Program-made: the position numbers and the translations under genes
Assembly: GCA_964016885.1 (NCBI GenBank)
Contig: OZ024745.1
Span: forward strand, 29,574,001 to 29,638,000
Direction of reading: 5' to 3'
Source of the DNA: Eledone cirrhosa
Lineage: Eukaryota
Length of the DNA: 64,000 nucleotides
In this document: positions 20,717 to 64,000 of the stretch, one piece after another
Numbering within the stretch: the first letter of the stretch is position 1
How the letters are laid out: each line of letters opens with the position of its first letter
The notes under the pieces: model-generated
Told to the model about the DNA's origin: nothing
Database searches by the model: none
What the model saw: only the letters and a program-made list of their open reading frames with translations

Positions 20717-20747
<31 letters not shown>

Positions 20748-21362: not shown

Positions 21363-21404
21363 CTGCATACAGAAGGGATAATAATAATAACAACAACAAC
21401 AGCA

Positions 21405-22892: not shown

Positions 22893-22940
<48 letters not shown>

Positions 22941-24807: not shown

Positions 24808-25192
24808 ATCATCATCATCATCCTTTCATTTTACGTCCACTTTTCCTTGCTTGCAAGGGTGGGACGGGAACTGATTCTGGCTTGATTTCTACAGCTGGAT
24901 GCCCTTCCTAACACCAACCTCATTTACAGTGAGTACTGGATGCTTTTTTTCCGTGGCACCTCCATGACCCCTTTGCAGTGGGATGATAGGGACCCCAGTT
25001 CCTATCATCTCAGTTCTACAGCTGAGTAAACTGTAGCAATGTGAAATAAAGTGTCTTGCTCAAGGAAACAACACATCACCCAGTCTGAGAGGGTGATGTA
25101 TTGTTTCCTTGAGCAAGACACTTTATTTCACATTGCTCCAGTTTACTCAGCTGGAGCAATGTGAAATAAAGTGTCTTGCTCAAGGAAACAAC
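24808..25192 (-). mobile_element. SINE (family A) lacking its head, with fold-back duplication of the core
   Basis: Matches 18622-18890. 25019-25081 is then repeated inverted at 25091-25153 and again forward at about 25151-25192. Confidence 0.8.
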
Positions 25193-25960: not shown

Positions 25961-26724
25961 CTGTATATACTCATATACAAAATGAGAAAAAAATCAATTG
26001 TAAAATGGGTGGGGGCAACATATATTCATGAACATTATTTTACTGAGGGCGGTGGATTGGCAGTATCGGTAGAGGGTCGGACGCCATGCTTTGATGCATA
26101 GAGTTACGGTCCTTGCCATTCTGAGTTCAAATCCCGCCGAGGTTAACTTTGCCTTTCATCCTTATGGGGTCGATAAAATAAAGTACCAGTAATGCACTGG
26201 GAAATTGCTGGCCTTGTGCCAAAAGTAGAAACAATTATTTTACCGAGGTTAACTTTGCCTTTCATCCTTACGGGGTCGATAAAATAAAGTACCAGTAATG
26301 CACTGGGTTATTGCTGGCCTTGTGCCAATAGTAGAAACAATTATTTTTCCGATTTTCAACAACTTTAAAATTCTACGTAAATGAAGTGAATATTACACTG
26401 GCTTTACTTTCGACATGAAATTCGTTTTTTTTTTGTTTTGTTTTGAATGAATATGGACTTAAAAACGGTCGGAAATAGGAAAAAGAAAAATCATTATGTA
26501 ATGAAGTTGTGAAACAAACGACACTTAAAACATTTTAAATATCAAAATATTAAAACTTCATAAATATATTCTTCATTTATGAGAATTTCAAAACTGCACC
26601 ACTTAAACATAATACGTTAATTACCTGACTTGGCTTATAAATGGGGTTTCGATTTTATCCTATTTATCAGACATAAAACAGAAGGTTGACTTATATTCAG
26701 ATCAGCTTATAATCGAGTATACAG
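25961..26724. mobile_element. Degenerate pogo/Tigger-like (Tc1/mariner superfamily) MITE carrying a SINE insertion
   Basis: Left end TA|CTGTATATACTCATATA. Reverse complement of the right end is CTGTATACTCGATTATAAGCTGA. Subterminal GACTTATA/GCTTATA motifs present. TIRs are imperfect. Confidence 0.5.
26046..26342 (+). mobile_element. tRNA-derived SINE (family B) with tandem duplication of its 3' half
   Basis: GGGCGGTGGATTGGCAGTATCGGTAGAG head and GAGTTCAAATCCC B box. CCGAGGTTAACTTTGCC...GTAGAAACAATTATT occurs twice. Confidence 0.85.
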
Positions 26725-26998
26725 TTATTTTGTAAATAATCAATAATTTTAGAAATTTAGTGAAATAAAAAACCATATTAATAAGTAGATGTTTAGAACA
26801 TAAAAATATTCTCCCATAACAACATTTGAGAGTTAACTATTAACATCCTCTAATGATTTAGTAGAAAATATCTAAAAATATAAAATTTTGCAGTAAAGAT
26901 TATAATTTTCAATATGAGGCAGTCAAAATGTTTTCTACTTTTGAAGAATGTCTTGCGAATGAGGTTTAATGTAGTACAGATGATGAAGAGTTAAATGT

Positions 26999-29900
26999 TC
27001 TGGACACAGACACAGTACAGCGCCTTGGACACAGAGACAGTACAGTGTCTTGGACACAGAGACAGTACAGTGTCTTGGACACAGAGACAGTACAGTGTCT
27101 TGAACACAGACACAATACAGTGCCTTGGACACAGACACAGTACAGTGTCTTGGACACAGAGACAGTACAGTTTCTTGGACACAGAGACAGTACAGTGTCT
27201 TGGACACAGAGACAGTACAGTGTCTTGAACACAGACACAGTAGAGTGCCTTGGACACAGAGACAGTACAGTGTCTTGGACACAGAGACAGAACAGTGTCT
27301 TGGACACAGAGACAGTACAGTGTCTTGGAAACAGAGACAGTACAGTGTCTTGGACACAGAGATAGTACAGTGTCTTGGACACAGACACAGTAGAGTGCCT
27401 TGGACACAGAGACAGTACAGTGTCTTGGACACAGAGATAGTACAGTGTCTTGAACACAGACACAGTAGAGTGCCTTGGACACAGAGACAGTACAGTGTCT
27501 TGGACACAGAGACAGAACAGTGTCTTGGACACAGAGACAGTACAGTGTCTTGGAAACAGAGACAGTACAGTGTCTTGGACACAGAGACAGTACAGTGTCT
27601 TGGAAACAGAGACAGTACAGTGTCTTGGACACAGAGAGAGTACAGTGTCTTGGACACTGAGATGGTACAGTGTCTTGGACACAGAGATAGTACAGTGTCT
27701 TGGACACAGAGACAGTACAGTGTCTTGGACACAGACATAGTACAGTGTCTTGGACACAGACACAGTACAGTGTCTTGGACACAGACATAGTACAGTGTCT
27801 TGGACACAGACACAGTACAGTGTCATGGACACAGAGATAGTACAGTGTCTTGGACACAGAGACAGTACAGTGTCTTGGATACAGACACAGTACAGTGTCT
27901 TGGACACAGAGATAGTACGGTGTCTTGGACACAGACACAGTACAGTGTCTTGGACACAGACACAGTACAGTGTCTTGGACACAGACACAGTACAGTGTCT
28001 TGGATACAGACACAGTATAGTGTCTTGGACACAGAGACAGTACAGTGCCTTGGACACAGAGACAGTACAGTGTCTTGGACACAGAGACAGTAGAGTGTCT
28101 TGGACACAGAGATAGTACAGTGTCTTGGACACAGAGACAGTACAGTGTCTTGGACACAGAGACAGTACAGTGTCTTGGACACAGAGATAGTACAGTGTCT
28201 TGGATACAGACACAGTACAGTGTCTTGGACACAGACATAGTACAGTGTCTTGGACACAGACACAGTACAGTGTCATGGACACAGAGATAGTACAGTGTCT
28301 TGGACACAGAGACAGTACAGTGTCTTGGATACAGACACAGTACAGTGTCTTGGACACAGAGATAGTACGGTGTCTTGGACACAGACACAGTACAGTGTCT
28401 TGGACACAGACACAGTACAGTGTCTTGGACACAGACACAGTACAGTGTCTTGGATACAGACACAGTATAGTGTCTTGGACACAGAGACAGTACAGTGCCT
28501 TGGACACAGAGACAGTACAGTGTCTTGGACACAGAGATAGTACAGTGTCTTGGATACAGACACAGTACAGTGTCTTGGACATCGACACAGTACAGTGTCT
28601 TGGATACAGACACAGTACAGTGTCTTGGACACAGACACGGTACAGTGTCTTGGATACAGACACAGTATAGTGTCTTGGACACAGATAGTACAGTGTTTTG
28701 GATACAGACACAGTACAGTGTCTTGGATACAGACACAGTATAGTGTCTTGGACATCGACACAGTACAGTGTCTTGGACACAGACACAGTACAGTGTCTTG
28801 GACACAGAGATAGTACAGTGTCTTGGATACAGACACAATACTGTGTCTTGGATACAGACACAGTACAGTGTCTTGGACACAGAGATAGTACAGTGTCTTG
28901 GATACAGACACAGTACAGTGTCTTGGACACAGAGACAGTACAGTGTCTTGGATACAGACACAGTAGTGTCTTGGACACAGAGATAGTACAGTGTCTTGGA
29001 TACAGATACAGTACAGTTTCTTGGACACAGAGATAGTACAGTGTCTTGGATACAGACACAGTACAGTGTCTTGGACACAGACACAGTACAGTGTCTTGGA
29101 CACAGACATGTACAGTGTCTTGGACACAGACAGTGTACAGTGTCTTGGACACAGAGATAGTACAGTGTCTTGGAAACAGCGACAGTACAGAGACTAGGAC
29201 ACAGAGACAGTACAGTGTCTTGGACACAGACACAGTACAGTGTCTTGGACACAGAGACAGTACAGTGTCTTGGACACAGAGACAGTACATTGCCTTGGAC
29301 ACAGAGACAGTACAGTGTCTTGGATACAGACACAGTACAGTGTCTTGGACATCGACACAGTACAGTGTCTTGGATACAGACACAGTACAGTGTCTTGGAC
29401 ACGGACACAGTACAGTGTCTTGGATACAGACACACTACAGTGTCTTGGACACAGATAGTACAGTGTTTTGGATACAGAGACAGTACAGTGTCTTGGACAC
29501 AGAGACAGTACATTGCCTTGGACACAGAGACAGTACAGTGTCTTGGACACAGAGATAGTACAGTGTCTTGGATACAGACACAGTACAGTGTCTTGGACAT
29601 CGACACAGTACAGTGTCTTGGATACAGACACAGTACAGTGTCTTGGACACAGACACAGTACAGTGTCTTGGATACAGACACAGTACAGTGTCTTGGACAC
29701 AGACACAGTACAGTGTCTTGGGTACAGACACAGTACAGTGTCTTGGGTACAGACACAGTACAGTGTCTTGAACACAGACAGAGTACAGTGTCTTGGACAC
29801 AGAGATAGTACAGTGTCTTGGATAGAGACACAGTACAGTGTCATGGACATCGACACAGTACAGTGTCTTGGAACAGAGATAGTACAGTGTCTTGGATACA

Positions 29901-32900
29901 GATACAGTACAGTGTCTTGGACACAGAGATAGTACAGTGTCTTGGACACAGAGACAGTACAGTGTCTTGGACACAGAGACAGTACATTGCCTTGGACACA
30001 GAGACAGTACAGTGTCTTGGACACAGAGATAGTACAGTGTCTTGGATACAGACACAGTACAGTGTCTTGGATAGAGACACAGTACAGTGTCATGGACATC
30101 GACACAGTACAGTGTCTTGGACACAGAGATAGTACAGTGTCTTGGATACAGATACAGTACAGTGTCTTGGACACAGAGATAGTACAGTGTCTTGGATACA
30201 GACACAGTACAGTGTCTTGGACACAGACACAGTACAGTGTCTTGGACACAGACACAGTACAGTGTCTTGGACACAGAGATAGTACAGTGTCTTGGATACA
30301 GATACAGTACAGTGTCTTGGACACAGAGATAGTACAGTGTCTTGGATACAGACACAGTACAGTGTCTTGGACACAGATACAGTACAGTGTCTTGGACACA
30401 GAAACAGTACAGTGGCTTCGACACAGTCACAGTACAGTGTCTTGGACACAGACACAGTACAGTGTCTTGGATACAGACACAGTACAGTGTCTTGGACACA
30501 GAGACAGTACAGTGTCTTGGAAACAGAGATAGTACAGTGTCTTGGATACAGACACAGTACAGTGTCTTGGACACAGACACAGTACAGTGTCTTGGATACA
30601 GACACAGAACAGTGTCTTGAACACGGACACAGTACAGTGTCTTGGACACAGAGACAGTACAGTGCCTTGGACACAGAGATAGTACAGTCTCTTGGACACG
30701 GAGACAGTACAGTGTCTTGGATAGAGACACAGTACAGTGTCTTGGACACAAACACAGTACAGTGTCTTGGATACAGACACAGTACAGTGTCTTGGACACA
30801 GACACAGTACAGTGCCTTGGACACAGAGAGAGTACAGTGTCTTGGACACAGAGATAGTATAGTGTCTTGCACACAGAGACAGTACAGTGTCTTGCACACA
30901 GACACAGTACAGTGTCTTGGACACAGACACAGTACAGTGTCTTGGACACAGACACAGTACAGTGTCTTGGACACAGACACAGTACAGTGTCTTGGACACA
31001 GACACAGTAAAGTGTCTTGGACACAGACACAGAACAGTGTCTTGGATACAGACACAGTACAGTGTCTTGGACACAGAGATAGTGCAGTGTCTTGGATACA
31101 GACACAGTACAGTGTCTTGGACACAGACACAGTACAGTGTCTTGGATACAGACACAGTACAGTGTCTTGGACACAGAGACAGTACAGTGGCTTGGACACA
31201 GAGACAGTACAGTGTCTTGGACACAGAGATAGTACAGTGTCTTGGATACAGACACAGTACAGTGTCTTGGACATCGACACAGTACAGTGTCTTGGATACA
31301 GACACAGTACAGTGTCTTGGACACAGACACAGTACAGTGTCTTGGATACAGACACGGTATAGTGTCTTGGACACATATAGTACAGTGTTTTGGATAGGGA
31401 CACAGTACAGTGTCTTGGATACAGACACAGTATAGTGTCTTGGACACAGAGATAGTACAGTGTCTTGGACACAGCGACAGTACAGAGACCAGGACACAGA
31501 GACAGTACAGTGTCTTGGACACAGACACAGTACAGTGTCTTGGACACAGAGACAGTACAGTGTCTTGGACACAGAGACAGTGCATTGCCTTGGACACAGA
31601 GACAGTACAGTGTCTTGGACACAGAGATAGTACAGTGTCTGGGATACAGACACAGTACAGTGTCTTGGACATCGACACAGTACAGTGTCTTGGATACAGA
31701 CACAGTACAGTGTCTTGGACACAGACACAGTACAGTGTGTTGGATACAGACACACTACAGTGTCTGGGACACAGATAGTACAATGTTTTGGATACAGACA
31801 CAGTACAGTGTCTTGGATACAGACACAGTACAGTGTCTTGGACACAGATACAGTACAGTGTCTTGAACACAGAAACAGTACAGTGGCTTCGACACAGTCA
31901 CAGTACAGTGTCTTGGATACAGAGACAGTACAGTGTCTTGGACACAGAGATAGTACAGTGTCTTGGATACAGACACAGTACAGTGTCTTGGACACAGAGA
32001 CAGTACAGTGTCTTGGACACAGATATAGTACAGTGTCTTGGATACAGACACAGTACAGTGTCTTGGACACAGATACAGTACAGTGTCTTGAACACAGAAA
32101 CAGTACAGTGGCTTCGACACAGTCACAGTACAGTGTCTTGGATACAGAGACAGTACAGTGTCTTGGACACAGAGATAGTACAGTGTCTTGGATACAGACA
32201 CAGTACAGTGTCTTGGACACAGAGACAGTACAGTGTCTTGGACACAGAGATAGTACAGTGTCTTGGATACAGACACAGTACAGTGTCTTGGACACAGACA
32301 CAGTACAGTGTCTTGGATACAGACACAGAACTGTGTCTTGAACACGGACACAGTACAGTGTCTTGGACACAGAGACAGAACAGTGCCTTGGACACAGAGA
32401 TAGTACAGTGTCTTGGACACAGAGACAGTACAGTGTCTTGGACACAGACACAGTACAGTACCTTGGACACAGAGACAGTACAGTGTCTTGGACACAGAGA
32501 CAGTACAGTGTCTTGGACACAGAGATAGTACAGTGTCTTGGACACAGAGACAGTACAGTGCCTTGGACACAGAGACAGTACAGTGTCTTGGACACAGACA
32601 CAGTACAGTGTCTTGGACACAGACACAGTACAGTGTCTTGGACACAGAGACAGTACAGTGTCTTGGACACAGAGATAGTACAGTGTCTTGGAAACAGAGA
32701 TAGTACAGTGTCTTGGACACAGACACAGTACAGTGTCTTGCATACAGACACAGTACAGTGTCTTGGATACAGACACAGTACAGTGTCTTGAACACAGACA
32801 GAGTACAGTGTCTTGGACACAGAGACAGTACAGTGTCTTGGATACAGATACAGTACAGTGTCTTGGACACAGATATAGTACAGTGTCTTGGATACAGACA

Positions 32901-35087
32901 CAGTACAGTGTCTTGGACACAGATACAGTACAGTGTCTTCAACACAGAAACAGTACAGTGGCTTCGACACAGTCACAGTACAGTGTCTTGGATACAGAGA
33001 CAGTACAGTGTCTTGGACACAGAGATAGTACAGTGTCTTGGATACAGACACAGTACAGTGTCTTGGACACAGAGACAGTACAGTGTCTTGGACACAGAGA
33101 TAGTACAGTGTCTTGGATACAGACACAGTACAGTGTCTTGGACACAGACACAGTACAGTGTCTTGGATACAGACACAGAACTGTGTCTTGAACACGGACA
33201 CAGTACAGTGTCTTGGACACAGAGACAGAACAGTGCCTTGGACACAGAGATAGTACAGTGTCTTGGACACAGAGACAGTACAGTGTCTTGGACACAGACA
33301 CAGTACAGTACCTTGGACACAGAGACAGTACAGTGTCTTGGACACAGAGACAGTACAGTGTCTTGGACACAGAGATAGTACAGTGTCTTGGACACAGAGA
33401 CAGTACAGTGCCTTGGACACAGAGACAGTACAGTGTCTTGGACACAGACACAGTACAGTGTCTTGGACACAGACACAGTACAGTGTCTTGGACACAGAGA
33501 CAGTACAGTGTCTTGGACACAGAGACAGTACAGTGTCTTGGATAGAGATACAGTACAGTGTCTTGGACACAAACACAGTACAGTGTCTTGGACACAGACA
33601 CAGTACAGTGTCTTGGACACAGAGACAGTACAGTGTCTTGGACACAGAGACAGTACAGTGCCTTGGACACAGAGACAGTACAGTGTCTTGGACACAGAGA
33701 TAGTACAGTGTCTTGGACACAGACACAGTACAGTGTCTTGGACACAGACACAGTACAGTGTCTTGGATACAGACACAGTACAGTGTCTTGGACATCGACA
33801 CAGTACAGTGTCTTGGACACAGACACAGTACAGTGTCTTGGACACAGAGATAGTACAGTGCCTTGGATACAGACACAGTACAGTGTCTTGGACACAGAGA
33901 CAATACAGTGTCTTGGACACAGAGATAGTACAGTGTCTTGGATACAGACACAGTACAGTGTCTTGGATACAGACACAGTACAGTGTCTTGGACACAGAGA
34001 TAGTACAGTGTCTTGGACACAGCAACAGTACAGAGACTTGGACACAGAGACAGCACAGTGTCTTGGACACAGACACAGTACAGTGTCTTGGACACAGAGA
34101 CAGTACAGAGTCTTTGACACAGAGACAGTATAGTGTCTTGGACACAGAGACAGTACAGTGTCTTGGATACAGACACAGTACAGTGCCTTGGACATCGACA
34201 CAGTACAGTATCTTGGACAAAGACACAGTATAGTGTGTTGGACACAGAGACAGTACAGTGGCTTGGACACAGACACAGTACAGTGTCTTGGTCACGGAGA
34301 CAGTACAGTGTCTTGGACACAGAGATAGTACAGTGTCTTGGAGACAGACACGGTACAGTGTCTTGGACACAGAGACAGTACAGTGGGTTGGACACAGACA
34401 CAGACACAGTACAGTGTCTTGGACACAGATACAGTACAGTGTCTTGGACACAGAAACAGTACAGTGGCTTCGACACAGTCACAGTACAGTGTCTTGGACA
34501 CAGAGACAGTACAGTGTCTTGGACACAGAGATAGTACAGTGTCTTGGATACAGACACAGTACAGTGTCTTGGACACAGAGACAGTACAGTGTCTTGGACA
34601 CAGAGATAGTACAGTGTCTTGGATACAGACACAGTACAGTGTCTTGGACACAGACACAGTACAGTGTCTTGGATACAGACACAGAACAGTGTCTTGAACA
34701 CGGACACAGTACAGTGTCTTGGACACAGAGACAGTACAGTGTCTTGGACACAGAGACAGTACGGTGTCTTGGATAGAGACACAGTACAGTGTCTTGGACA
34801 CAAACACAGTACAGTGCGTTGGACACAGACACAGTACAGTGTCTTGGACACAGAGACAGTACAGTGCCTTGGACACAGAGACAGTACAGTGTCTTGGACA
34901 CAGAGATAGTACAGTGTCTTGGATACAGACACAGTACAGTGTCTTGGACACAGACACAGTACAGTGTCTTGGATACAGACACACTACAGTGTCTTGCACA
35001 CAGATAGTACAGTGTTTTGGATACAGACACAGTACAGTGTCTTGGATACAGACACAGTACAGTGTCTTGGACACAGAGATAGTGCAG
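26999..35087. repeat. 25-bp minisatellite array 1 (about 324 units), consensus CAGTACAGTGTCTTGGACACAGA(C/G)A
   Basis: Direct observation. Main variants are ...ACAGACACAG, ...ACAGAGACAG, ...ACAGAGATAG and GGATAC for GGACAC. Confidence 0.97.
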
Positions 35088-35448
35088 TAAATGGGGTTTG
35101 GATTTTATCCTATTTATCAGACATAAAACAGAAGGTTGACTTATATTCAGATCAGCTTATAATCGAGTATACAGTTATTTTGTAAATAATCAATAATTTT
35201 AGAAATTTAGTGAAATAAATAACCATATTAATAAGTAGATGTTTAGAACATAAAAATATTCTCCCATAACAACATTTGAGAGTTAACTATTAACATCCTC
35301 TAATGATTTAGTATAAACTATCTAAAAATATAAAAATTTGCAGTAAAGATTATAATTTTCAATATGAGGCTGTCAAAATGTTTTCTACTTTTGAAGAATG
35401 TCTTGCGAATGAGGTTTAATGTAGTACAGATGATGAAGAGTTAAATGT

Positions 35449-38400
35449 TCTGGACACAGACACAGTACGGTGCTTTGGACACACAGACAGTACAGTGTCT
35501 TGGACACAGAGACGGTACAGTGTCTTGGACACAGAGACAGTACAGTGTCTTGAACACAGACACAGTACAGTGCCTTTGACACAGAGACAGTACAGAGTCT
35601 TGGACACAGAGACAGTACAGTGTCTTAGATACAGACACAGTACAGTGCCTTCGACATCGACACAGTACATTGTATTGGACACAGACATAGTACAGTGTCT
35701 TGGACACAGAGACAGTACAGTGGCTTGGACACAGACACAGTACAGTGTTTTGGACACAGAAACAGTACAGTGTCTTGGACACAGAGATAGTACCGTGTCT
35801 TGGACACAGACAAAGTACAGTGTCTTGGACACAGACACAGTACAGTGGCTTGGACACAGACACAGTACAGTGTCTTGGACATAGAGACAGTACAGTGTCT
35901 TGGACACAGAGACAGTACAGAGTCTTGGACACAGAGACAGTACAGAGTCTTGGACACAGAGATAGTACAGTGTCTTGGACACAGACACAGTACAGTGTCT
36001 TGGATACAGACACAGTACAGTGGCTTCGATACAGACACAGTACAGTGTCTTGGGCACAGAGACAGTAGAGAGTCTTGGACACAGAGATAGTACAGTGCCT
36101 TGGACACAGACACAGTACAGTATCTTGGACACAGAGACAGTACAGTGTCTTGGACACAGAGACAGTACAGTGCCTTGGACACAGAGACAGTACAGTGTCT
36201 TGGACACAGAGACAGTACAGTGTCTTGGATACAGACACAGTACAGTGCATTGGACATCGACACAGTATAGTGTCTTGGACACAGACACAGTACAGTGTCT
36301 TGGACACAGAGATAGTACAGTGTCTTGGACACAGAGACAGTACAGAGACTTGGACACAGAGACAGTACAGTTTCTTGGACACAGAGACAGTACAGTGTCT
36401 TGGATACAGACACAGTACAGTGACTGGAACATCGACACAGTACTATGTCTTGGACACAGAGACAGTACAGTTTCTTGGACACAGAGACAGTACAGTGGCT
36501 TGGACACAGACACAGTACAGTGTCTTGGACACAGAGACAGTACAGTGTCTTGGACACAGAGATAGTACAGTGTCTTGGACACAGACACAGTACAGTGTCT
36601 TGGACACAGAGACAGTGCGGTGGCTTGGACACAGAGACAGTACAGTGTCTTGGACACAGAGACAGTACAGTGTCTTGGACACAGACACAGTACAGTGTCT
36701 TCGACACAGAGACAGTACAGATTATTGGACACAGAGATAGTACAGTGTCTTGTACACAGACACAGTACAGTGTCTTGGACACAGACACAGTACAGTGTCT
36801 TGGACATAGAGACAGTGAAGTGTCTTGGACACAGAGACAGTACAGAGTCCTGGACACAGAGACAGTACAGATTCTTGGACGCAGAGATAGTACAGTGTCT
36901 TGGACACAGACACAGTACAGTGTCTTGGATAAAGACACAGTACAGTGGCTTAGACACTGACACAGTACATTTTCTTGGACACAGAGACAGTACAGAGTCG
37001 TGGACACAGAGATAGTACAGTGTCTTGGAGACAGACACAGTACAGTGTCTTGGACACAGACACAGTACAGTGTCTTGGACACAGAGACAGTACAGTGTCT
37101 TGGATACAGACACAGTACAGTGTCTTGGACACAGAGACAGTACAGTGTCTTGGACACAGACACAGTACAGTGCCTTGGACACAGACACAGTACAGTGTCT
37201 TGGACACAGAGATAGTACAGTGTCTTGGACACAGAGACAGTACAGAGACTTGGACACAGAGACAGTACAGTGTCTTGGACACAGCGACAGTACAGAGACT
37301 TGGACACAGAGACAGCACAGTGGCTTGGACAGAGACACAGTACAATGTCTTGAACACAGAGACAGTACAGTGTTTTGGACACAGAGATAGTACAGTGTCT
37401 TGGACACAGACACAGTACAGTGTCTTGGACACAGACACAGTACAGTGGCTTGGACACAGACACAGTACAGTGTCTTGGACACAGAGTCAGTACAGTGTCT
37501 TGGACACAGCGACAGTACAGAGACTTGGACACAGAGACAGTACAGTGTCATGGACACAGACACAGTACAGTGTCTTGGACACAGAGACAGTACAGTGTCT
37601 GGGACACAGAGACAGTACAGTGTCTTGGACACAGAGACAGTACAGTGTCTTGGACACAAACACAGTACAGTGTCTTGGACACAGAGATAGTACAGTGTCT
37701 TGGACACAGACACAGTACAGTGCCTTGGACACAGAGACAGTACAGTGTCTTGGACACAGAGGCAGTACAGTGCCTTGGACACAGAGACAGTACAGTGTCT
37801 TGGACACAGAGAGAGTACAGTGTCTTGGATACAGACACAGTACAGTGCATTGGACATCGACAGAGTATAGTGTCTTGGACACAGACACAGTACAGTGTCT
37901 TGGACACAGAGATAGTACAGTGTCTTGGACACAGAGACAGTACAGTGTCTTGGACACAGACACAGTACAGTGCCTTGGACATCGGCACAGTACAGTGTCT
38001 TGGACACAGACACAGTACAGTGTCTTGGACACAGACACAGTACAGTGTCTTGGACACAGACACAGTTCAGTGTCTTGGACACAGACACAGTACAGTGTCT
38101 TGGACACAGACACAGTAAAGAGTCTTGGACACAGACACAGTACAGTGTCTTGGACACAGACACAGTACAGTGGCTTGGAAACAGACACAGTACAGTGTCT
38201 TGGACAAAAAAACAGTACAATGTCTTGGACAAAGACAAAGTACAGTGCCTTGGACACAGACACAGTACAGTGTCTTGGACACAGACACAGTACAGTGTCT
38301 TGGACACAGAGACAGTACAGTGTCTTGGACACAGACACAGTACAGTGCCTTGGACACAGAGACAGTGCAGTAAATGGGGTTTGGATTTTATCCTATTTAT

Positions 38401-53400: not shown

Positions 53401-56400
53401 TGAACACAGACACAGTACAATATCTTGGACACAGACACAGTACAGTGTCTTGAACACTGACAGTACAGTGTCTTGGACACAGAGACAGTACAGTGTCTTG
53501 ACCACAGACACAGTACAGTATCTTGGACACAGACACAGTACAGTGCCTTGGACACAGAGATAGTACAGTGTCTTGGACACAGACACAGTACCGTGTCTTG
53601 GACACAGAGACAGTACAGTGGCTTGGACACAGACACAGTACAGTGTCTTGGACATAGAGACAGTACAGTGTCTTGGACACAGACACAGTACAGTGTCTTG
53701 GACACAACACAGTACAGTGTCTTGGACACAGAGACAGTACAGAATCTTGGACACAGAGATAGTACAGTGTCTTGGACACAAAGACAGTACAGAGACTTGG
53801 ACACAGAGACAGTACAGTGTCTTGGACACAGAGACAGTACAGAGACTTGGACACAGAGACAGTACAGTGTCTTGGACACAGACACAGTACAGTGTCTTGG
53901 ACACAGAGACAGTACAGTGCCTTGGACACAGAGACAGTACGGTGCCTTGGACATCGGCACAGTACAGTGTCTTGGACACAGACACAGGACAGTCTCTTGG
54001 ACACAGACACAGTACAGTGTCTTGGACACAGACACGGTACAGTGTCTTGGACACAGAGACAGTACAGTGGCTTGGACACAGACACAGTACAGTGTCTTGG
54101 ACACAGACACAGTACAGTGTCTTGGACACAGAGATAGTACAGTCTCTTGGACACAGACACAGTACAGTGCCTTGGACAAAAAAAACAGTACAATGTCTTG
54201 GACACACACAAAGTACAGTGCCTTGGACACAGACACAGTACAGTGTCTCGGACACAGAGACAGTACAGTGTCTTGGACACAGAGACAGTACAGTGCCTTG
54301 GATACAGACACAGTACAGTGCATTGGACATCGACACAGTACAGTGTCTTGGACACAGACACAGTACAGTGTCTTGGACACTGAGATAGTACAGTGTCTTG
54401 GACACAGAGACAGTACAGAGACTTGGAGACAGAGACAGTACAGTGTCTTGGACACAGACACAGTACAGTGTCTTGGACACAGAGGCAGTACATTGGCTTG
54501 GACACAGACACAGTACAGTGCCTTGGACATCGGCACAGTACAGTGTCTTGGACACAGACACAGTACAGTGTCTTGGATACAGACACAGTACAGTGTCTTG
54601 AACACAGACACAGTACAATGTCTTGGACACAGACACAGTACAGTGCCTTGGACACAGACACAGTACAGTGTCTTGGACACAGAGACAGTACAGTGTCTTG
54701 ACCACAGACACAGTACAGTACCTTGGACACAGACACAGTACAGTGCCTTGGACACAGAGATAGTACAGTGTCTTGGACACAGAGACAGTACAGTGTCTTG
54801 GACACAGAGACAGTATAGTGTCTTGGATACAGACACAGTACAGTGCCTTGGACACAGACACAGTACAGTGTCTTGGACACATAGATAGTACAGTGTCTTG
54901 GACACAGAGACAGTACAGAGACTTGAACACAGAGACAGTACAGAGTCTTGGACACAGAGACAGTACAGTGTCTTGGTCACAGAGACAGTACAGTGTCTTA
55001 GACACAGACACAGTACAGTGCCTTGGACATCGACACAGTACAGTGTTTTGCACACAGACACAGTACAGTGTCTTGGACACAGAGACAGTACAGTGGCTTG
55101 GACACAGAGACAGTACAGTGTCTTGGACATAGAGACAGTACAGTGTCTTGGACACAGACACAGTACAGTGTCTTGGACACAACACAGTACAGTGTCTTGG
55201 ACACAGAGACAGTACAGAGTCTTGGACACAGAGATAGTACAGTGTCTTGGACACAGAGACAGTACAGAGACTTGGACACAGAGACAGTACAGTGTCTTGG
55301 ACACAGAGACAGTACAGAGACTTGGACACAGAGACAGTACAGTGTCTTGGACACAGACACAGTACAGTGTCTTGGACACAGAGACAGTACAGTGTCTTGG
55401 ACACAGACACAGTACAGTGCCTTGGACATCGGCACAGTACAGTGCTTGGACACAGACACAGTACAGTCTCTTGGACACAGACACAGTACAGTGTCTTGGA
55501 CACAGACACAGTACAGTCTCTTGGACACAGAGACAGTACAGTGGCTTGGACACAGACACAGTACAGTGTCTTGGAGACAGACACAGTACAGTGTCTTGGA
55601 CACAGAGATAGTACAGTCTCTTGGACACAGTCACAGTACAGTGCCTTGGACAAAAAAAACAGTACAATGTCTTGGACACAGACAAAGTACAGTGCCTTGG
55701 ACACAGACACAGTACAGTGTCTTGGACACAGACACAGTACAGTGTCTTGGACACAAAGATAGTACAGTGTATTGGACACAGACACAGTACAGCGCCTTGG
55801 ACACAGAGACAGTGCAGTAAATGGGGTTTGGATTTTATCCTATTTATCAGACATAAAATAGAAGGTTGACTTATATTCAGATCAGCTTATAATCGAGTAT
55901 ACAGTTATTTTGTAAATAATCAATAATTTTAGAAATTTAGTGAAATAAATAACCATATTAATAAGTAGATGTTTAGAACATAAAAATATTCTCCCATAAC
56001 AACATTTGAGAGTTAACTATTAACATCCTCTAATGATTTAGTAGAAACTATCTAAAAATATAAAAATTTGCAGTAAAGATTATAATTTTCAATATGAGGC
56101 TGTCAAAATGTTTTCTACTTTTGAAGAATGTCTTGCGAATGAGGTTTAATGTAGTACAGATGATGAAGAGTTAAATGTTCTGGACACAGACACAGTACAG
56201 TGCCTTGCACACAGAGACAGTACAGTCTCTTGGACACAGAGACAGTACAGTGTCTTGAACATAGACACAGTACAGTACCTTGGACACAGACACAGTACAG
56301 TGTCTTGGACACAGAGACAGTACAGAGTCTTGGACACAGAGACAGTACAGTGTCTTGGTCACAGAGACAGTACAGTGTCTTGGACATCGACACAGTACAG

Positions 56401-59400
56401 TGTCTTGGACACAGACACAGTACAGTGTCTTTGACACAGAGACAGAACAGTGGCTTGGACACAGAGACAGTACAGTGTCTTGGACACAACACAGTACAGT
56501 TTCTTGGACACAGAGACAGTACAGAGTCTTGGACACAGAGATAGTACAGTGTCTTGGACACAGAGTCAGTACAGAGACTTGGACACAGAGACAGTACAGT
56601 GTCTTGGACACAGACACAGTACAGTGTCTTGGACACAGAGACAGTACAGTGTCTTGGACACAGACACAGTACAGTGCCTTGGACAACGGCACAGTACAGT
56701 GTCTTGGACACAGACACAGTACAGTCTCTTGGACACAGAGATAGTACAGTGTTCTTGGGCACAGACACAGTACAGTGTCTTGGACACAGAGACAGTACAG
56801 TGGCTTGGACACAGACACAGTACAGTGTCTAGGACACAGAGATAGTACAGTCTCTTGGACACAGACACAGTACAATGCCTTGGACAAGAAAACAGTACAA
56901 TGTCTTGGACACAGACAAAGTACAGTGCCTTGGACACAGACACAGTACAGTGTCTTGGACACAGAGACAGTACAGTGTCTTGGACACAGAGACAGTACAA
57001 TGTCTTGGATACAGACACAGTACAGTGCATTGGTCATCGACACAGTACAGTGTCTTGGACATAGACACAGTACAGTGTCTTGGACACTGAGATAGTACAG
57101 TGTCTTGGACACAGAGACAGTACAGAGACTTGGACACAGAGACAGTACAGTGTCTTGGACACAGACACAGTACAGTGTCTTGGACACAGAGACAGTACAG
57201 TGTCTTGGACACAGACACAGTACAGTGCCTTGGACATCGGCACAGTACAGTGCTTGGACACAGACACAGTACAGTCTCTTGGACACAGACACAGTACAGT
57301 GTCTTGGACACAGACACAGTACAGTGTCTTGGACACAGAGACAGTACAGAGACTTGGACACAGAGACAGTACATTGTCTTGGGAACAGACACTGTACAGT
57401 GTCTTGGACACGGAGACATTACAGTGTCTTGGATACAGACACAGAACAGTGCCTTGGACATCGGCACAGTACAGTGTCTTGGACACAGACACAGTACAGT
57501 GTCTTGGACACAGAGACAGTACAGTGTGTTGGACACAGACACAGTACAGTGCCTTGGACATCGGCACAGTACAGTGTCTTGGACACAGACACAGTACAGT
57601 GTCTTGGACACAGACAAAGTACAGTGCCTTGGACACAGACACAGTACAGTGTCTTGGACACAGACACAGTACAGTGTCTTGGACACAGAGATAGTACAGT
57701 CTCTTGGACACAGACACAGTACAGTGCCTTGGACACAGAGACAGTGCAGTAAATGGGGTTTGGATTTTATCCTATTTATCAGACATAAAACAGAAGGTTG
57801 ACTTATATTCAGATCAGCTTATAATCGAGTATACAGTTATTTTGTAAATAATCAATAATTTTAAAAATTTAGTGAAATAAATAACCATATTAATAAGTAG
57901 ATGTTTAGAACATAAAAATATTCTCCCATAACAACATTTGAGAGTTAACTATTAACATCCTCTAATGATTTAGTAGAAAATATCTAAAAATATAAAAATT
58001 TGCAGTAAAGATTATAATTTTCAATATGAGGCTGTCAAAATGTTTTCTACTTTTGAAGAATGTCTTGCGAATGAGGTTTAATGTAGTACAGATGATGAAG
58101 AGTTAAATGTTCTGCACACAGACACAGTACAGTGTCTTGCACACAGAGACAGTACAGTCTCTTGGACACAGAGACAGTACAGTGTCTTGAACATAGACAC
58201 AGTACAGTACCTTGGACACAGACACAGTACAGTGCCTTGAACACAGAGATAGTACAATATCTTGGACACAGAGACAGTACAGTGTCTTGGACACAGAGAC
58301 AGTACAGTGTGTTGAACACAGAGACAGTACAGTGCCTTGGACACAGAGACAGTACAGTGTCTTGGACACCGAGACAGTACAGTGTCTTGGACACAGAGAC
58401 AGTACAGTGTCTTTAACACAGACACAGTACAGTGCCTTGGACACAGAGACAGTACAGTGTCTTGGACACAGAGACAGTATAGTGTCTTGGACACAGAGAC
58501 AGTGCAGTGTCTTGGACACACAGATAGTACAGTGTCTTGGATACAGACACAGTACAGTGTCTTGGACACAGACACAGTACAGTGTCTTGGATACAGACAC
58601 AGTACAGTGTCTTGAACACAGACACAGTACAATGTCTTGGACACAGACACAGTACAGTGTCTTGAACACAGACACAGTACAGTGTCTTGGACACAGAGAC
58701 AGTACAGTGTCTTGACCACAGATACATTACAGTACCTTGGACACAGAGACAGTACAGTGCCTTGGACACAGAGATAGAACAGTGTCTCGGACACAGAGAC
58801 AGTACAGTGTCTTGGACACAGAGACAGTACAGTGTCTTGGATACAGACACAGTACAGTGCCTTGGACACAGACACAGTACAGTGTCTTGGACACAGATAT
58901 AGTACAGTGTCTTGGACACAGAGACAGTACAGAGACTTGGACACAGAGACAGTACAGTGTCTTGGACACAGACACAGTACAGTGTCTTGGACACAGACAC
59001 AGTACAGTGCCTTGGACAACGGCACAGTACAGTGTCTTGGACACAGACACAGTACAGTCTCTTGGACACAGACACAGTACAGTGTCTTGGACACAGACAC
59101 AGTACAGTGTCTTGGACACAGAGACAGTACAGTGTCTTGGACACAGAGACAGTACAGTGTCTTGGATACAGACACAGTACAGTGCATTGGACATCGACAC
59201 AGTACAGTGTCTTGGACACAGACACAGTACAGTGTCTTGGACACTGAGATAGTACAGTGTCTTGGACACAGAGACAGTACAGAGACTTGGACACAGAGAC
59301 AGTACAGTGTCTTGGACACAGAGACAGTACAGTGTCTTGGACACAGACACAGTACAGTGCCTTGGACATCGGCACAGTACAGTGTCTTGGACACAGACAC

Positions 59401-62400
59401 AGTACAGTGTCTTGGACACAGGCACAGTACAGTGTCTTGGACACAGACACAGTACAGTGTCTTGGACACAGAGACAGTACAGTGGCTTGGACACAGACAC
59501 AGTACAGTGTCTTGGACACAGACACAGTACAGTGTCTTGGACACAGAGATAGTACAGTCTCTTGGACACAGACACAGTACAGTGCCTTGGACAAAAAAAC
59601 AGTACAATGTCTTGGACACAGACAAAGTACAGTGCCTTGGACACAGACACAGTACAGTGTCTTGGACACAGACACAGTACAGTGTCTTGGACACAGAGAT
59701 AGTACAGTGTCTTGGACACAGACACAGTACAGTGTCTTGGACACAGAGATAGTACAGTGTCTTGGACACAGACACAGTACAGTGCCTCGGACACAGAGAC
59801 AGTGCAGTAAATGGGGTTTGGATTTTATCCTATTTATCAGACATAAAACAGAAGGTTGACTTATATTCAGATCAGATTATAATCGAGTATACAGTTATTT
59901 TGTAAATAATCAATAATTTTAGAAATTTAGTGAAATAAATAACCATATTAATAAGTAGATGTTTAGAACATAAAAATATTCTCCCATAACAACATTTGAG
60001 AGTTAACTATTAACATCCTCTAATGATTTAGTAGAAAATATCTAAAAATATAAAAATTTGCAGTAAAGATTATAATTTTCAATATGAGGCTGTCAAAATG
60101 TTTCCTACTTTTGAAGAATGTCTTGCGAATGAGGTTTAATGTAGTACAGATGATGAAGAGTTAAATGTTCTGCACACAGACACAGTACAGTGCCTTGCAC
60201 ACAGAGACAGTACAGTCTCTTGGACACAGAGACAGTACAGTGTCTTGAACATAGACACAGTACAGTACCTTGGACACAGACACAGTACAGTGCCTTGGAC
60301 ACAGAGATAGTACAGCATCTTGGACACAGAGACAGTACAGTGTCTTGGACACCGAGACAGTACAGTGTCTTGGACACAGAGACAGTACAGTGTCTTGAAC
60401 ACAGACACAGTACAGTGCCTTGGAAACCGAGACAGTACAGTGTCTTGGACACAGAGACAGTACAGTGTCTTTAACACAGACACAGTACAGTGCCTTGGAC
60501 ACAGAGACAGTACAGTGTCTTGGACACAGAGACAGTGCAGTGTCTTGGACACACAGATAGTACAGTGTCTTGGATACAGACACAGTACAGTGTCTTGGAC
60601 ACAGACACAGTACAGTGTCTTGGATACAGACACAGTACAGTGTCTTGAACACAGACACAGTACAATGTCTTGGACACAGACACAGTACAGTGTCTTGAAC
60701 ACAGACACAGTACAGTGTCTTGGACACAGAGACAGTACAGTGTCTTGACCACAGATACATTACAGTACCTTGGACACAGATACAGTACAGTGCCTTGGAC
60801 ACAGAGATAGTACAGTGTCTTGGACACAGAGACAGTACAGTGTCTTGGACACAGAGACAGTACAGTGTCTTGGATACAGACACAGTACAATGCCTTGGAC
60901 ACAGACACAGTACAGTGTCTTGAACACAGAGATAGTACAGTGTCTTGGACACAGAGACAGTACAGAGACTTGGACACAGAGACAGTACAGTGTCTTGGAC
61001 ACAGACACAGTACAGTGTCTTGGACACAGAGACAGTACAGAGTCTTGGACACAGACACAGTACAGTGTCTTGATCACAGAGACAGTACAGTGTCTTGGAC
61101 ATCGACACAGTACAGTGTCTTGGACACAGACACAGTACAGTGTCTTGGACAGAGAGACAGTACAGTGGCTTGGACACAGAGACAGTACAGTGTCTTGGAC
61201 ATAGAGACAGTACAGTGTCTTGGACACAGACACAGTACAGTGTCTTGGACACAACACAGTACAGTGTCTTGGACACAGAGACAGTACAGAGTCTTGGAGA
61301 CAGAGATAGTACAGTGTCTTGGACACAGAGACAGTACAGAGACTTGGACACAGAGACAGTACAGTGTCTTGGACACAGAGACAGTACAGAGACTTGGACA
61401 CAGAGACAGTACAGTGTCTTGGACACAGACACAGCACAGTGTCTTGGACACAGAGACAGTACAGTGTCTTGGACACAGACACAGTACAGTGCCTTGGACA
61501 ACGGCACAGTACAGTGTCTTGGACACAGACACAGTACAGTCTCTTGGACACAGACACAGTACAGTGTCTTGGACACAGACACAGTACAGTGTCTTGGACA
61601 CAGAGACAGTACAGTGTCTTGGACACAGACACAGTACAGTGTCTTGGACACAGACACAGTTATGTGTCTTGGACACAGAGATAGTACAGTCACTTGGACA
61701 CAAACACAGTACAGTGCCTTGGAAAAAAAACAGTACAATGTCTTGGACACAGACAAAGTACAGTGCCTTGGACACAGACACAGTACAGTGTCTTGGACAC
61801 AGAGACAGTACAGTGTCTTGGACACAGAGACAGTACAGTGTCTTGGATACAGACACAGTACAGTGCATTGGACATCGACACAGTACAGTGTCTTGGACAC
61901 AGACACAGTACAGTGTCTTGGACACTGAGATAGTACAGTGTCTTGGACACAGAGACAGTAGAGAGACTTGGACACAGAGACAGTACAGTGTCTTGGACAC
62001 AGACACAGTACAGTGTCTTGGACACAGAGACAGTACAGTGTCTTGGACACAAGACACAGTACAGTGCCTTGGACATCGGCACAGTACAGTGTCTTGGACA
62101 CAGACACAGTACAGTGTCTTGGACACAGGCACAGTACAGTGTCTTGGACACAGACACAGTACAGTGTCTTGGACACAGAGACAGTACAGTGGCTTGGACA
62201 CAGACACAGTACAGTGTCTTGGACACAGACACAGTACAGTGTCTTGGACACAGAGATAGTACAGTCTCTTGGACACAGACACAGTACAGTGCCTTGGACA
62301 AAAAAACAGTACAGTGTCTTGGACACAGGCACAGTACAGTGTCTTGGACACAGACACAGTACAGTGTCTTGGACACAGAGATAGTACAGTGTCTTGGACA

Positions 62401-64000
62401 CAGACACAGTACAGTGCCTTGGACACAGAGACAGTGCAGTAAATGGGGCTTGGATTTTATCCTTTTTATCAGACATAAAACAGAAGTTTGACTTATATTC
62501 AGATCAGCTTATAATCGAGTATACAGTTATTTTGTAAATAATCAATAATTTTAGAAATTTAGTGAAATAAATAACCATATTAATAAGTAGATGTTTAGAA
62601 CATAAAAATATTCTCCCATAACAACATTTGAGAGTTAACTATTAACATCCTCTAATGATTTAGTAGAAAATATCTAAAAATATAAAAATTTGCAGTAAAG
62701 ATTATAATTTTCAATATGAGGCTGTCAAAATGTTTTCTACTTTTGAAGAATGTCTTGCGAATGAGGTTTAATGTAGTACAGATGATGAAGAGTTAAATGT
62801 TCTGCACACAGACACAGTACAGTGCCTTGCACACAGAGACAGTACAGTCTCTTGGACACAGAGACAGTACAGTGTCTTGAACATAGACACAGTACAGTAC
62901 CTTGGACACAGACACAGTACAGTGCCTTGGACACAGAGATAGTACAGCATCTTGGACACAGAGACAGTACAGTGTCTTGGACACCGAGACAGTACAGTGT
63001 CTTGGACACAGAGACAGTACAGTGTCTTGAACACAGACACAGTACAGTGCCTTGGACACCGAGACAGTACAGTATCTTGGACACAGAGACAGTACAGTGT
63101 CTTTAACACAGACACAGTACAGTGCCTTGGACACAGAGACAGTACAGTGTCTTGGACACAGAGACAGTATAGTGTCTTGGACACAGTACAGTGCAGTGTC
63201 TTGGACACACAGATAGTACAGTGTCTTGGATACAGACACAGTAGAGTGTCTTTGACACAGACACAGTACAGTGTCTTGGATACAGACACAGTACAGTGTC
63301 TTGAACACAGACACAGTACAATGTCTTGGACACAGACACAGTACAGTGTCTTGAACACAGACACAGTACAGTGTCTTGGACACAGAGACAGTACAGTGTC
63401 TTGACCACAGATACATTACAGTACCTTGGACACAGAGACAGTACAGTGCCTTGGACACAGAGATAGTACAGTGTCTTGGACACAGAGACAGTACAGTGTC
63501 TTGGATACAGACACAGTACAGTGCCTTGGACACAGACACAGTACAGTGTCTTGGACACAGAGATAGTACAGTGTCTTGGACACAGAGACAGTACAGAGAC
63601 TTGGACACAGAGACAGTACAGTGTCTTGGACACAGACACAGTACAGTGTCTTGGACACAGAGACAGTACAGAGTCTTTGACACAGACACAGTACAGTGTC
63701 TTGATCACAGAGACAGTACAGTGTCTTGGACATCGACACAGTTCAGTGTCTTGGACACAGACACAGTACAGTGTCTTGGACACAGAGACAGTACAGTGGC
63801 TTGGACACAGAGACAGTACAGTGTCTTGGACATAGAGACAGTACAGTGTCTCTGACACAGACACAGTACAGTGTCTTGGACACAACACAGTACAGTGTCT
63901 TGGACACAGAGACAGTACAGAGACTTGGAGACAGAGATAGTACAGTGTATTGGACACAGAGACAGTACAGAGACTTGGACACAGAGACAATACAGTGTCT
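35449..64000. repeat. 25-bp minisatellite arrays 2-13 (about 117, 136, 67, 47, 74, 109, 66, 99, 63, 68, 91 and >48 units) separated by cassettes
   Basis: Unit counts were estimated as array length divided by 25. Same consensus as array 1. Confidence 0.95.

Follow-up and report, generated by a model that had tools for sequence, protein, structure and literature searches.

A nested minisatellite locus in Eledone cirrhosa whose repeated cassette is its own left flank

Introduction

The locus described here raises the question of how a 361-bp cassette came to be repeated again and again within a run of 25-bp units, and whether such an arrangement reflects a mobile element, a functional array, or the ordinary turnover of a minisatellite. 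To answer it, we consider in turn the layout of the locus, the source of the cassette, the footprints of duplication, and the explanations that could account for them.

Results

Layout of the locus

The window (the whole 64,000-nucleotide stretch of Eledone cirrhosa DNA that was analysed) had been described from its letters as containing an array of at least 37 kb, in which 13 nearly identical cassettes separate 25-bp arrays of about 1.2 to 8.1 kb. TRF calls a single 25-bp array over this part of the window (27001 to 64000, score 41,240), the 13 cassettes are 97.2-98.6% identical to the first copy (one has a 1-bp deletion), and the 12 complete arrays measure 1,170-8,089 bp (Table 1). The array runs beyond the window up to G000:C5:29666569, with further cassettes at G000:C5:29644017, 29660245 and 29662253. 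The whole locus thus comprises 65.9 kb without any N, in which 16 cassettes of 361 bp separate runs of 46-634 units, 2,394 25-mers in all; the largest array, counting those beyond the window, is 15,867 bp long. These cassettes and 25-mer arrays at one locus support the reading of a two-level composite macrosatellite. The word "hypervariable", which had been applied to the 25-bp blocks, is apt between arrays of one assembly, the only level at which variation is seen.

The 25-mers differ from their consensus at 1.63 positions on average, have a G+C content of about 45%, and show interspersed variants; 65 of the 2,394 depart from 25 bp, 16 of these being first units counted with an extra base. 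GTAC, noted earlier in almost every unit, is present in 2,219 of them. All 12 complete arrays in the window finish GTGCAG|TAAAT, as had been noticed, with ATAGTGCAG in array 1, whose junction unit carries a different variant from those of other arrays; array 14, beyond the window, ends GTGCTG. The native first unit recurs, in variant form, at the start of each array. The stereotyped order of variants reported for array starts extends over about three units in all arrays; beyond these the longer order is lineage-specific.

Long plain minisatellites are common in the E. cirrhosa genome: one 48-mer array, for instance, covers 19.9 kb, and a 71-mer array at least 20.5 kb. A repeated cassette was found in none of 10 other arrays examined, and cassette capture is therefore not a routine outcome.

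Table 1. Features of the locus within the window.
Feature	Position	Strand	Remarks
MITE1, decayed TA-flanked terminal-inverted-repeat MITE-like element	25961..26724	.	dispersed copies and inverted arms
SINE-like repeat inserted in MITE1, outside array	26046..26345	.	very abundant; 106-bp internal duplication
Cassette 1	26638..26998	+	native left flank, continuous with single-copy upstream sequence
Cassette middle, AT-rich fragment of another dispersed repeat	26725..26832	.	72-77% matches in L034, L037, L039
MITE2, whole 162-bp TTAA-flanked MITE-like element	26833..26994	.	within cassette
Array 1	26999..35087	+	323 units; own variant repertoire
Cassette 2	35088..35448	+	first capture junction GTGCAG|TAAAT, 1 bp microhomology
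Array 2	35449..38370	+	116 units
Cassette 3	38371..38731	+	1 difference from cassette 2
Array 3	38732..42126	+	135 units; sister of array 2
Cassette 4	42127..42487	+	
Array 4	42488..44159	+	66 units
Cassette 5	44160..44520	+	
Array 5	44521..45690	+	46 units
Cassette 6	45691..46051	+	2 differences from cassette 4
Array 6	46052..47898	+	73 units; sister of array 4
Cassette 7	47899..48259	+	identical to cassette 8
Array 7	48260..50981	+	108 units; array-8 head fused to array-6 body
Cassette 8	50982..51342	+	
Array 8	51343..52988	+	65 units
Cassette 9	52989..53348	+	1-bp deletion; three variants in common with cassette 16 (beyond window)
Array 9	53349..55817	+	98 units
Cassette 10	55818..56178	+	
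Array 10	56179..57749	+	62 units
Cassette 11	57750..58110	+	
Array 11	58111..59807	+	67 units
Cassette 12	59808..60168	+	
Array 12	60169..62439	+	90 units; unit 1 (60174) is left breakpoint of 7,577-bp tandem duplication
Cassette 13	62440..62800	+	identical to cassette 14 (beyond window)
Array 13, start only	62801..64000	+	288 units in full

Source of the cassette

The cassette is the left flank of the locus itself, made of MITE remnants, and not the conserved box of an element. It consists of the last 87 bp of MITE1, the fragment of another repeat, and the complete 162-bp MITE2, in that order; the remainder of MITE1 is single-copy and continues upstream of cassette 1. Dispersed MITE1 copies align across the cassette start (26638) at 69-80% identity, and loci that align straight through this position number five in one comparison (L031, L033-L036) and eight in another. 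The inverted arms of MITE1 are 25 nt long in a relative (L029) and form a 20-nt, 70% pair in the window, while its terminal 18-mer has 67 exact matches genome-wide; its 5' end (25961-26045) is assigned solely by eye and by the arm pair. The repeat inserted into MITE1 we take to be a SINE.

In an alignment of nine MITE2 relatives all similarity stops at TTAA, and the 25-mer follows none of the copies in two comparisons (0/9 and 0/12). The MITE2 terminal 18-mer has 253 exact matches; among 12 copies, 8 are paired with an inverted partner at 4 mismatches or fewer, the five best spanning 163-227 bp. The 25-mer array begins 4-6 bp outside the TTAA end of MITE2 and about 275 bp outside MITE1. A general link between MITE2 and minisatellites was considered and rejected: an array is present at 2 of 29 further loci, and arrays near MITE2 relatives sit 0.5-3 kb off, none of them adjacent.

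A single junction position with 1 bp of microhomology is common to all 15 internal cassettes, which points to a single capture event. Cassette 1 differs from the majority at four sites (13, 133, 249 and 284), its state being ancestral at 284, probably ancestral at 249, and derived at 13 and 133. The cassettes have a mean pairwise difference of 1.97% and lie on average 4.0 differences (about 1.1%) from their consensus.

Footprints of duplication and exchange

Near-exact tandem duplications range from 0.2 to 7.6 kb, with or without a cassette; copies that contain one include 7,596 bp with one mismatch and 1,819 bp with none. It had been proposed that the macro-unit and the 25-mer expand independently, and this is half right. 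Blocks of 25-mers duplicated without a cassette in 8 of the 9 head-to-tail duplications listed, but the cassettes multiplied jointly with adjoining 25-mers: cassette distance is correlated with the distance between downstream array heads (Mantel r = 0.33, p = 0.0014). Because cassettes and their 25-mers travelled jointly in later duplications, the levels cannot be called independent. No such correlation links cassette distance to the upstream tail (r = 0.07, p = 0.31), which counts against the origin proposed below.

Where duplications join, the junction unit is a clean chimera spanning 17-19 bp. Aligned bases of sister arrays 4 and 6 diverge by 0.67%, and 2 of 361 positions distinguish their cassettes. 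Most indels that separate sister arrays have lengths close to a multiple of 25, and array fusions skip cassettes. In the four-gamete test 6 of 105 pairs of cassette sites fail, implying exchange or recurrent mutation inside cassettes. Unit order is alike above shuffled controls in internal arrays 5, 9-12, 15 and 16. No unit order links the internal arrays to array 1 or to the 3' half of array 16, and for this reason neither the size nor the content of the first duplication can be reconstructed; this, like the different variant in the junction unit of array 1, weighs against the origin proposed below.

Folding and coding potential

The inner repeat had been called a hairpin minisatellite, but the fold is weak (monomer z = -0.96). 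Tandem controls made of shuffled monomers fold as well in 3.2% of cases for one main unit and 23% for the other, and the mean fold of 202 four-unit windows from the real array is reached by 11% of column-permuted controls (n = 274); the multimer z-scores of -2.7 to -4.1 are inflated because their shuffles are not tandem. The commonest variants weaken the fold (destabilisation against count, Spearman rho = +0.30, p = 0.009, with non-independent counts), and the predicted arms are more variable than the loop. On these two grounds we reject selection for a hairpin as well as a hairpin-driven array of the MSY1 kind. A coding array is likewise rejected, given that the long open frames are interrupted by variant stops and indels; such frames arise because the 25-mer is stop-free on both strands. 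Pfam matches of the longest frame (DUF2642, DUF6109) we take to be low-complexity noise, with no stretch passing on its own, and an Rfam search of window positions 20000-40000 gave no matches.

Discussion

Proposed origin

We consider it probable that this is a single-locus, likely neutral minisatellite that captured its 361-bp left flank, likely once and at one non-homologous junction, and then multiplied cassette and array together, likely by unequal exchange, under continuing turnover of the 25-mers. An ordinary minisatellite would have arisen 4-6 bp beside the TTAA MITE. Within one unit, a break or a switch of template may then have let synthesis restart 361 bp upstream of the array, the product being a tandem duplication or a templated insertion. 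Unequal exchange or gene conversion would, in a burst, have given rise to several lineages of cassettes, which today lie about 1.1% from consensus, and out-of-register exchanges between 25-mers, using 17-19 bp of identity, would have added, fused and resized arrays, some exchanges falling inside cassettes. A function is unnecessary to account for the locus.

The locus is valuable as an unusually legible record of how a plain minisatellite, with transposon debris next to it, gave rise to a composite macrosatellite. Its source flank, single capture junction and later exchange points are readable at base level, and the cassettes serve as an internal clock for measuring 25-mer turnover. If the locus varies between individuals, it would serve as a highly informative marker as well.

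Alternative explanations

The near-star tree of the cassettes does not favour stepwise exchange, as a rolling-circle burst fits it equally well. The same flank capture may have been followed by one rolling-circle event re-integrated at the locus, the circle consisting of a cassette and about 2 kb of array closed by a non-homologous junction; we regard this as unlikely. The single junction agrees with it, as do the core order common to internal arrays 5, 9-12, 15 and 16, the length of 1.9-2.2 kb seen in 6 of 15 macro-units, and the way the terminal arrays stand apart. However, rapid stepwise exchange likewise yields a star tree, and the later gains that can be dated are plain head-to-tail duplications with 25-mer breakpoints.

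Another reading accepts the locus as real and, compatibly with our preferred explanation, attributes the youngest near-exact duplications (7.6, 2.3 and 1.8 kb) to assembly errors, in which case the locus would really hold one or two cassettes fewer and be about 10 kb shorter. In arrays of this kind, noisy long reads may be overlapped wrongly. These duplications have 0-1 mismatches over 1.8-7.6 kb and are spanned by no read or contig; none among the contigs listed crosses an array-to-cassette junction. Against this, older sister arrays show the same type of event at graded divergence (0.44-6.9%), the junction units are clean chimeras, and the assembled locus contains no N. The 16 cassettes comprise 14 distinct haplotypes, which excludes a one-cassette assembly artefact. 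In short-read contigs of sample S1 the alleles at 26770, 26886, 26921 and 27003 are of the internal type, at a depth of 43.5-63.3, compared with 2.9-9.0 for the other listed contigs above 200 bp (runs X2, X3); this fits many copies, although contig depth is not equal to copy number. We find errors of this kind unlikely.

The footprints of unequal exchange are seen within one assembly. Two RAD-seq runs of other individuals (X5, X6) did not cover the locus and returned only short pieces of dispersed repeats, a blank that is uninformative because the array contains no PstI, SbfI or EcoRI site. In a second organism (run X4) cassette coverage is limited to shared repeats, and 25-mer-like contigs occur at 88% likeness, with none at 94%, a pattern that allows no interpretation.

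Random exchange does not predict where the two resolvable cassette gains broke: both did so inside 25-mers, in the first unit after a cassette, one of them in array 12 and the other at the exchange point of array 7 (49442-49458, within unit 1 of array 6). The chance of this is 1.5e-4 to 6e-4, calculated post hoc for n = 2, and none of the 8 listed cassette-free head-to-tail duplications begins at unit 1. It seems conceivable, though very unlikely, that the cassette edge is active, either starting exchanges, as a flanking recombination hotspot or fork-stalling site that now exists in 16 copies, or stopping branch migration, with the result that gains are resolved in unit 1. An assembly product could account for one of the two events, and a passive heterology barrier is in keeping with the origin proposed above. 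Polarity of turnover is rejected as well, array heads and tails being about equally conserved over 3-4 units each. The broader notion that the captured flank is a cis element or barrier where exchanges start or resolve, an instability signal multiplied sixteen-fold by its capture, we consider unlikely; if true, the locus would be a self-accelerating tandem repeat in which gains of cassettes break in the unit directly following a cassette, and its alleles would be tens of kilobases apart in length. Should the first-unit breakpoints be borne out in further alleles, the locus would test whether heterology edges fix the sites at which unequal exchange resolves.

The preliminary description had likened the locus to Helentron- or MITE-associated satellites. 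MITE sequence is indeed present in the cassette, and for oyster the text of PMC12628747 describes arrays built from element parts in tandem. The analogy fails at several points. A whole-assembly search places every exact 34-nt match of the 25-mer array (478/478) and every unit match with at most 2 mismatches (2,112/2,112) in this array, leaving no dispersed copies of flank, array and flank, and all 16 full-length cassettes among the 46 matches listed are at this locus. The array lies outside the inverted repeats of both MITEs, and the cassette starts inside MITE1. The TRF scan called no left-flank microsatellite between 26353 and 27000; short AT-rich inverted pairs exist and are not assignable to the subterminal inverted repeat of a HINE. 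A search for a 3' subterminal repeat or palindrome in the right flank found only array-internal arms (L023:8400-8800); the first 65 bp or so of this flank are unique (none of 40 scored candidates gave a second match), after which an unrelated repeat begins. The tandemisation, as in bivalves, of a Helentron (HINE) or MITE with an internal array is thus already contradicted, and we consider it extremely improbable.

Comparison with known systems

The preliminary description had not recognised the locus as a described family. Its sequence was indeed not found in print, but its layout has been described. Our literature search, which covered mainly open-access texts, found no account of this sequence or of nested minisatellites in cephalopods; an octopus repeat library in a public deposit could nevertheless include the MITEs or the 25-mer.

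Crassostrea gigas Cg_HINE Helentrons, as presented in the text of PMC7492417, are dispersed and have subterminal repeats, a microsatellite, a 3' palindrome and TT insertion sites. The likeness here consists of conserved non-repetitive sequence adjoining a variable tandem array, with TE-derived sequence involved; unlike Cg_HINE, the present array occupies a single locus and lacks the HINE features looked for. Minisatellites with interspersed variants, together with human MSY1, come close as well (PMC2599865, PMC2674676). MSY1 has a 25-bp unit with a predicted hairpin and base-substitution variants, and evolves by block duplication and conversion. Unit length, a predicted hairpin (weak in the present array), substitution variants and turnover by block duplication and conversion recur here. 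In those accounts, however, MSY1 is 75% A+T with block-organised variants, never off-length units and no cassette described, whereas our array is richer in G+C, interspersed, and includes off-length units.

A nested tandem repeat (NTR), as defined by Matroud, Hendy and Tuffley (PMC3273788), has a motif X interspersed among variable runs of a motif x, the copies of each forming on their own an approximate tandem repeat, and this is the arrangement found here (1.97% differences between cassettes and 1.63 per 25-mer). The NTRs tabulated there, from rDNA spacers and the human Y, have motifs of at most 107 bp, up to 72 inner copies and spans below 3 kb; here X is 361 bp and traceable to the native flank, x is 25 bp, the inner copies number 46-634, and the span is 65.9 kb. 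The T2T study (bioRxiv 10.1101/2021.07.12.451456) describes composites that contain TE pieces and attributes them to unequal crossing over. In its sense of a composite macrosatellite, the present locus combines the MITE1 end, the dispersed fragment, MITE2 and the 25-mer array in tandem units that have not transposed as a unit, all copies being at one locus. The teucer-ajax subunit array of human TELO_Comp is a minisatellite array (49 bp) of variable length bounded by a duplicated flank, itself tandemly arrayed, whose two parts evolve as one unit. The resemblance is one of layout, with no sequence relation claimed: TELO_Comp extends over 10 chromosomes, whereas the E. cirrhosa array is a single interstitial locus, with inner arrays reaching 15.9 kb and cassettes skipped at fusions. 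We conclude that the locus is a clean example of this known nested-repeat layout, and not a new mobile element or satellite system.

Extent of the array and its support in reads

The window (G000:C5:29574001-29638000 of the contig, in an assembly of 3.0 Gb) contains 13 full copies of the 361-bp cassette, 97.2-98.6% identical to the first in a BLAST search with 26638-26998, and the 25-bp arrays between them measure 1,170-8,089 bp. The preliminary description had reported the same from the sequence alone: 13 near-identical cassettes separated by arrays of about 1.2 to 8.1 kb. TRF, which it had proposed as a check, returns 27001-64000 as one 25-bp array. Neighboring stretches place the right end of the array beyond the window, giving a whole array, G000:C5:29600638-29666569, of 65.9 kb with 16 cassettes and no N. 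It contains 14 HpaI and 2,261 RsaI sites and is cut by neither EcoRI nor PstI; the RsaI digest proposed in the preliminary description would break it up, with pieces mainly of cassette size remaining. It splits into 2,394 units of 373 types (exactly 25 bp in 2,329), with runs of 46-634 units in each array (array n being the block that follows cassette n). The array is real and was well described. The repeat content resembles that of an octopus.

Short-read contigs from one sample, possibly the source of the assembly, cover the cassette at a depth of 43.5-63.3, and at 26770, 26886, 26921 and 27003 they carry the bases of the internal cassettes, unlike cassette 1, the native left flank. Other contigs above 200 bp among those listed for sequencing runs X2 and X3 have depths of 2.9-9.0. 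Of the 16 copies, a mean of 13.2 in one contig region and 11.6 in the other share a consensus 31-mer, so about 16 copies with a depth of 4-5 apiece would account for the cassette depth, contig depth not being copy number. Among the contigs listed, none crosses the capture junction. The concern that a single cassette had been multiplied during assembly is ruled out by 14 distinct cassette haplotypes. RAD-seq data from other individuals, in two runs, gave no coverage of the locus. In run X4, from a second organism, contigs with a depth of 480-800 match the 25-mer (window 27020-27070) at 88% likeness and none at 94%; these may represent a related minisatellite or chance.

Positions of features in and around the array, in window coordinates unless a contig is named (values above 64000 continue past the right end); the retrotransposon fragments carry RVT_1 and endonuclease domains
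Feature	Position	Strand	Remark
Non-LTR retrotransposon fragment	256-720	-	
Non-LTR retrotransposon fragment	1790-2173	+	
Degenerate (TGG)n array	3538-5957		2.4 kb; extreme strand asymmetry (GC skew of 0.96, 4001-6000)
Non-LTR retrotransposon fragment	7893-8588	-	
Non-LTR retrotransposon fragment	8739-9068	-	
Non-LTR retrotransposon fragment	15375-16466	-	RVT_1, then PHD finger
SINE-like repeat	26046-26345		inside MITE1; extremely abundant; 106-bp internal tandem duplication
Span aligned by dispersed MITE1 copies	~26342 to ~26721		69-80%
Cassette 1	26638-26998		
Match to another dispersed repeat	26725-26832		72-77%
MITE2	26833-26994		complete, TTAA to TTAA
Copied segment	47640-49458		copy at 50723-52541, 0 mismatches
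Cassette 9	52989-53348		
Head-to-tail duplication with cassette	60174-67769		one mismatch
Cassette 16	G000:C5:29662253-29662613		
Right end of array	92569 (C5:29666569)		
Uninterrupted 48-mer minisatellite	G000:C3:360689497-360709397		19.9 kb
Uninterrupted 71-mer minisatellite	C15:32216726-32237198		at least 20.5 kb
Insertion in a 29-mer array	L076+L101, joined positions 3717-4193		477 bp, single

A single locus and the origin of the cassette

The 25-mer is confined to one locus. All 478 genome matches to an exact 34-nt dimer pattern lie in the array, as do 2,112 of 2,112 matches to a 23-nt pattern allowing up to two mismatches (2,112 forward, 0 reverse). With 40 of 1,559 cassette candidates scored, the matches listed include 16 full-length copies, all at the array locus, and 30 partial ones elsewhere, at 70-93%, which fall on distinct cassette segments.

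These segments show what the cassette consists of. MITE1, a decayed TA-flanked element, has dispersed copies that align without interruption across position 26638, where the cassette begins; one relative carries terminal arms of 25 nt with TA at start and end, and a terminal 18-mer has 67 exact genome matches. The cassette thus starts 87 bp before the end of this old MITE-like element, whose remainder is single-copy upstream of cassette 1 and split by the SINE-like repeat. Next come the dispersed fragment and MITE2, nine relatives of which lose similarity at TTAA or shortly before it. The MITE2 terminal 18-mer has 253 exact genome matches, and an inverted partner is present in 8 of 12 copies. 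MITE1 may be of Tc1/mariner-type and MITE2 of piggyBac-type origin. None of the MITE2 relatives compared is followed by the 25-mer. Because it is built of the MITE1 end, a dispersed fragment and the whole of MITE2, the cassette is a slice of ordinary local flank rather than the box of an element. A scan of 14 open frames in the left flank returned retrotransposon fragments only, and no host gene.

The probable capture junction

All 15 internal cassettes begin at the same base, preceded by the same truncated unit (GTGCAG|TAAAT; GTGCTG in array 14), and in every array the opening unit is a version of the native one. Parental overlap at the junction is at most one base. In the simplest reading, we infer, flank and array start were taken jointly in a single non-homologous event, either a tandem duplication or a templated insertion. 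At site 284 (12/12) and probably at 249 (4/6), cassette 1 has the outgroup base where a derived one is common to most internal copies; at sites 13 and 133 it is cassette 1 that carries the derived base. The substitutions fit an early divergence of the native copy from a single captured ancestor.

Amplification and exchange

The cassettes differ by 1.97% in mean pairwise comparison and by 1.1% from their consensus, far below the divergence of the MITEs from their own relatives. In octopus, a Jukes-Cantor distance of 0.09 has been equated with 25 million years (PMC13282606); provided that the likeness to octopus and a neutral rate both hold, the amplification burst would date to about 3 million years ago. 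Substitutions among cassettes 1-16 are rich in transversions (12 transitions and 21 transversions, a small sample).

Internal arrays 5, 9-12, 15 and 16 have a common unit order (scores 14-72, against 6-10 in shuffled controls), arrays 2 and 4 make up another such group (50 against 9), and neither array 1 nor the 3' half of array 16 shares order with these internal arrays. In the assembly sequence, one segment is duplicated head to tail with its cassette and another is copied exactly (table); array 7 joins the head of array 8 to the body of array 6. The youngest duplications, of 7.6, 2.3 and 1.8 kb, could be assembly errors. Another eight duplications lie head to tail, span 9-91 units and are cassette-free, two of them being copies of one event. 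Cassette distance correlates with downstream-head distance (Mantel r = 0.33, p = 0.0014) and not with upstream-tail distance (r = 0.07, p = 0.31). The preliminary description held that macro-unit and 25-mer expand independently. Cassette-free duplications bear out its view of the 25-mer, but cassettes travel with 25-mers, both in duplications and in the downstream-head correlation. Because 25-mers resize alone while cassettes move together with them, the two levels are nested, not independent. Within the cassettes, the four-gamete test is violated by 6 of 105 informative site pairs. Three variants, two of them private, are common to cassettes 9 and 16, which lie 35 kb from each other; this suggests either exchange over a long range or a large duplication of older date.

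Both resolvable cassette-carrying duplications exchange within the first 25-mer after the cassette, over 17-19 bp of identity. A uniform model gives a chance of 1.5e-4 for this (6e-4 if either end is allowed), for a pattern recognized post hoc in two events, one possibly an assembly product. A passive account, in which the heterology edge stops branch migration, would explain it. So would an active flanking hotspot, which is not favored because array heads and tails are equally conserved, at 3-4 units each. We judge it improbable that exchanges are driven or fixed by the cassette edge itself, the bolder reading of the locus.

The predicted hairpin

The hairpin attributed to the minisatellite at the outset exists as a 6-bp stem in the unit, but the monomer is ordinary (z = -0.96), shuffled tandem controls fold equally well in 3.2% and 23% of cases for the two main units, and 11% of controls match the real array. 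The commonest variants destabilize the stem, and variation is greater in the arms than in the loop. The hairpin may contribute to slippage, but it is not conserved.

Genomic background

Long plain minisatellites are common in this genome, including the 48-mer and 71-mer in the table and a 54-mer of 6 kb. A similar 48-mer on another contig (C8) indicates that this unit is dispersed. A repeated cassette was found in none of 10 other arrays, a non-random sample met near repeat matches; the same test recovers 15 of 15 internal cassettes in the array studied. The single insertion in one of the 10 looks like a dispersed repeat and could be a one-copy starting stage of a nested array, reached by a different route.

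Comparison with known systems

We found no description of the array sequence in the literature searched, repeat libraries and supplements lying outside that search. The initial analogy with Helentron- or MITE-associated satellites falls away, the 25-mer being at one locus only and the cassette a flank slice. The array does not belong to the oyster HINE class, as characterized in PMC7492417, from which it differs in dispersal and flank structures, and likeness to MSY1, as presented in PMC2599865, is limited to unit length and a predicted hairpin. By its layout the array is a nested tandem repeat as defined in PMC3273788, on a scale far above the cases tabulated there. It also parallels the human teucer-ajax arrays (bioRxiv 10.1101/2021.07.12.451456), in which a variable array of 49-bp repeats is itself arrayed together with the sequence that bounds it, the two evolving as one. 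We regard the locus as a local accident, and of a kind already known: a minisatellite that likely captured its own flank.
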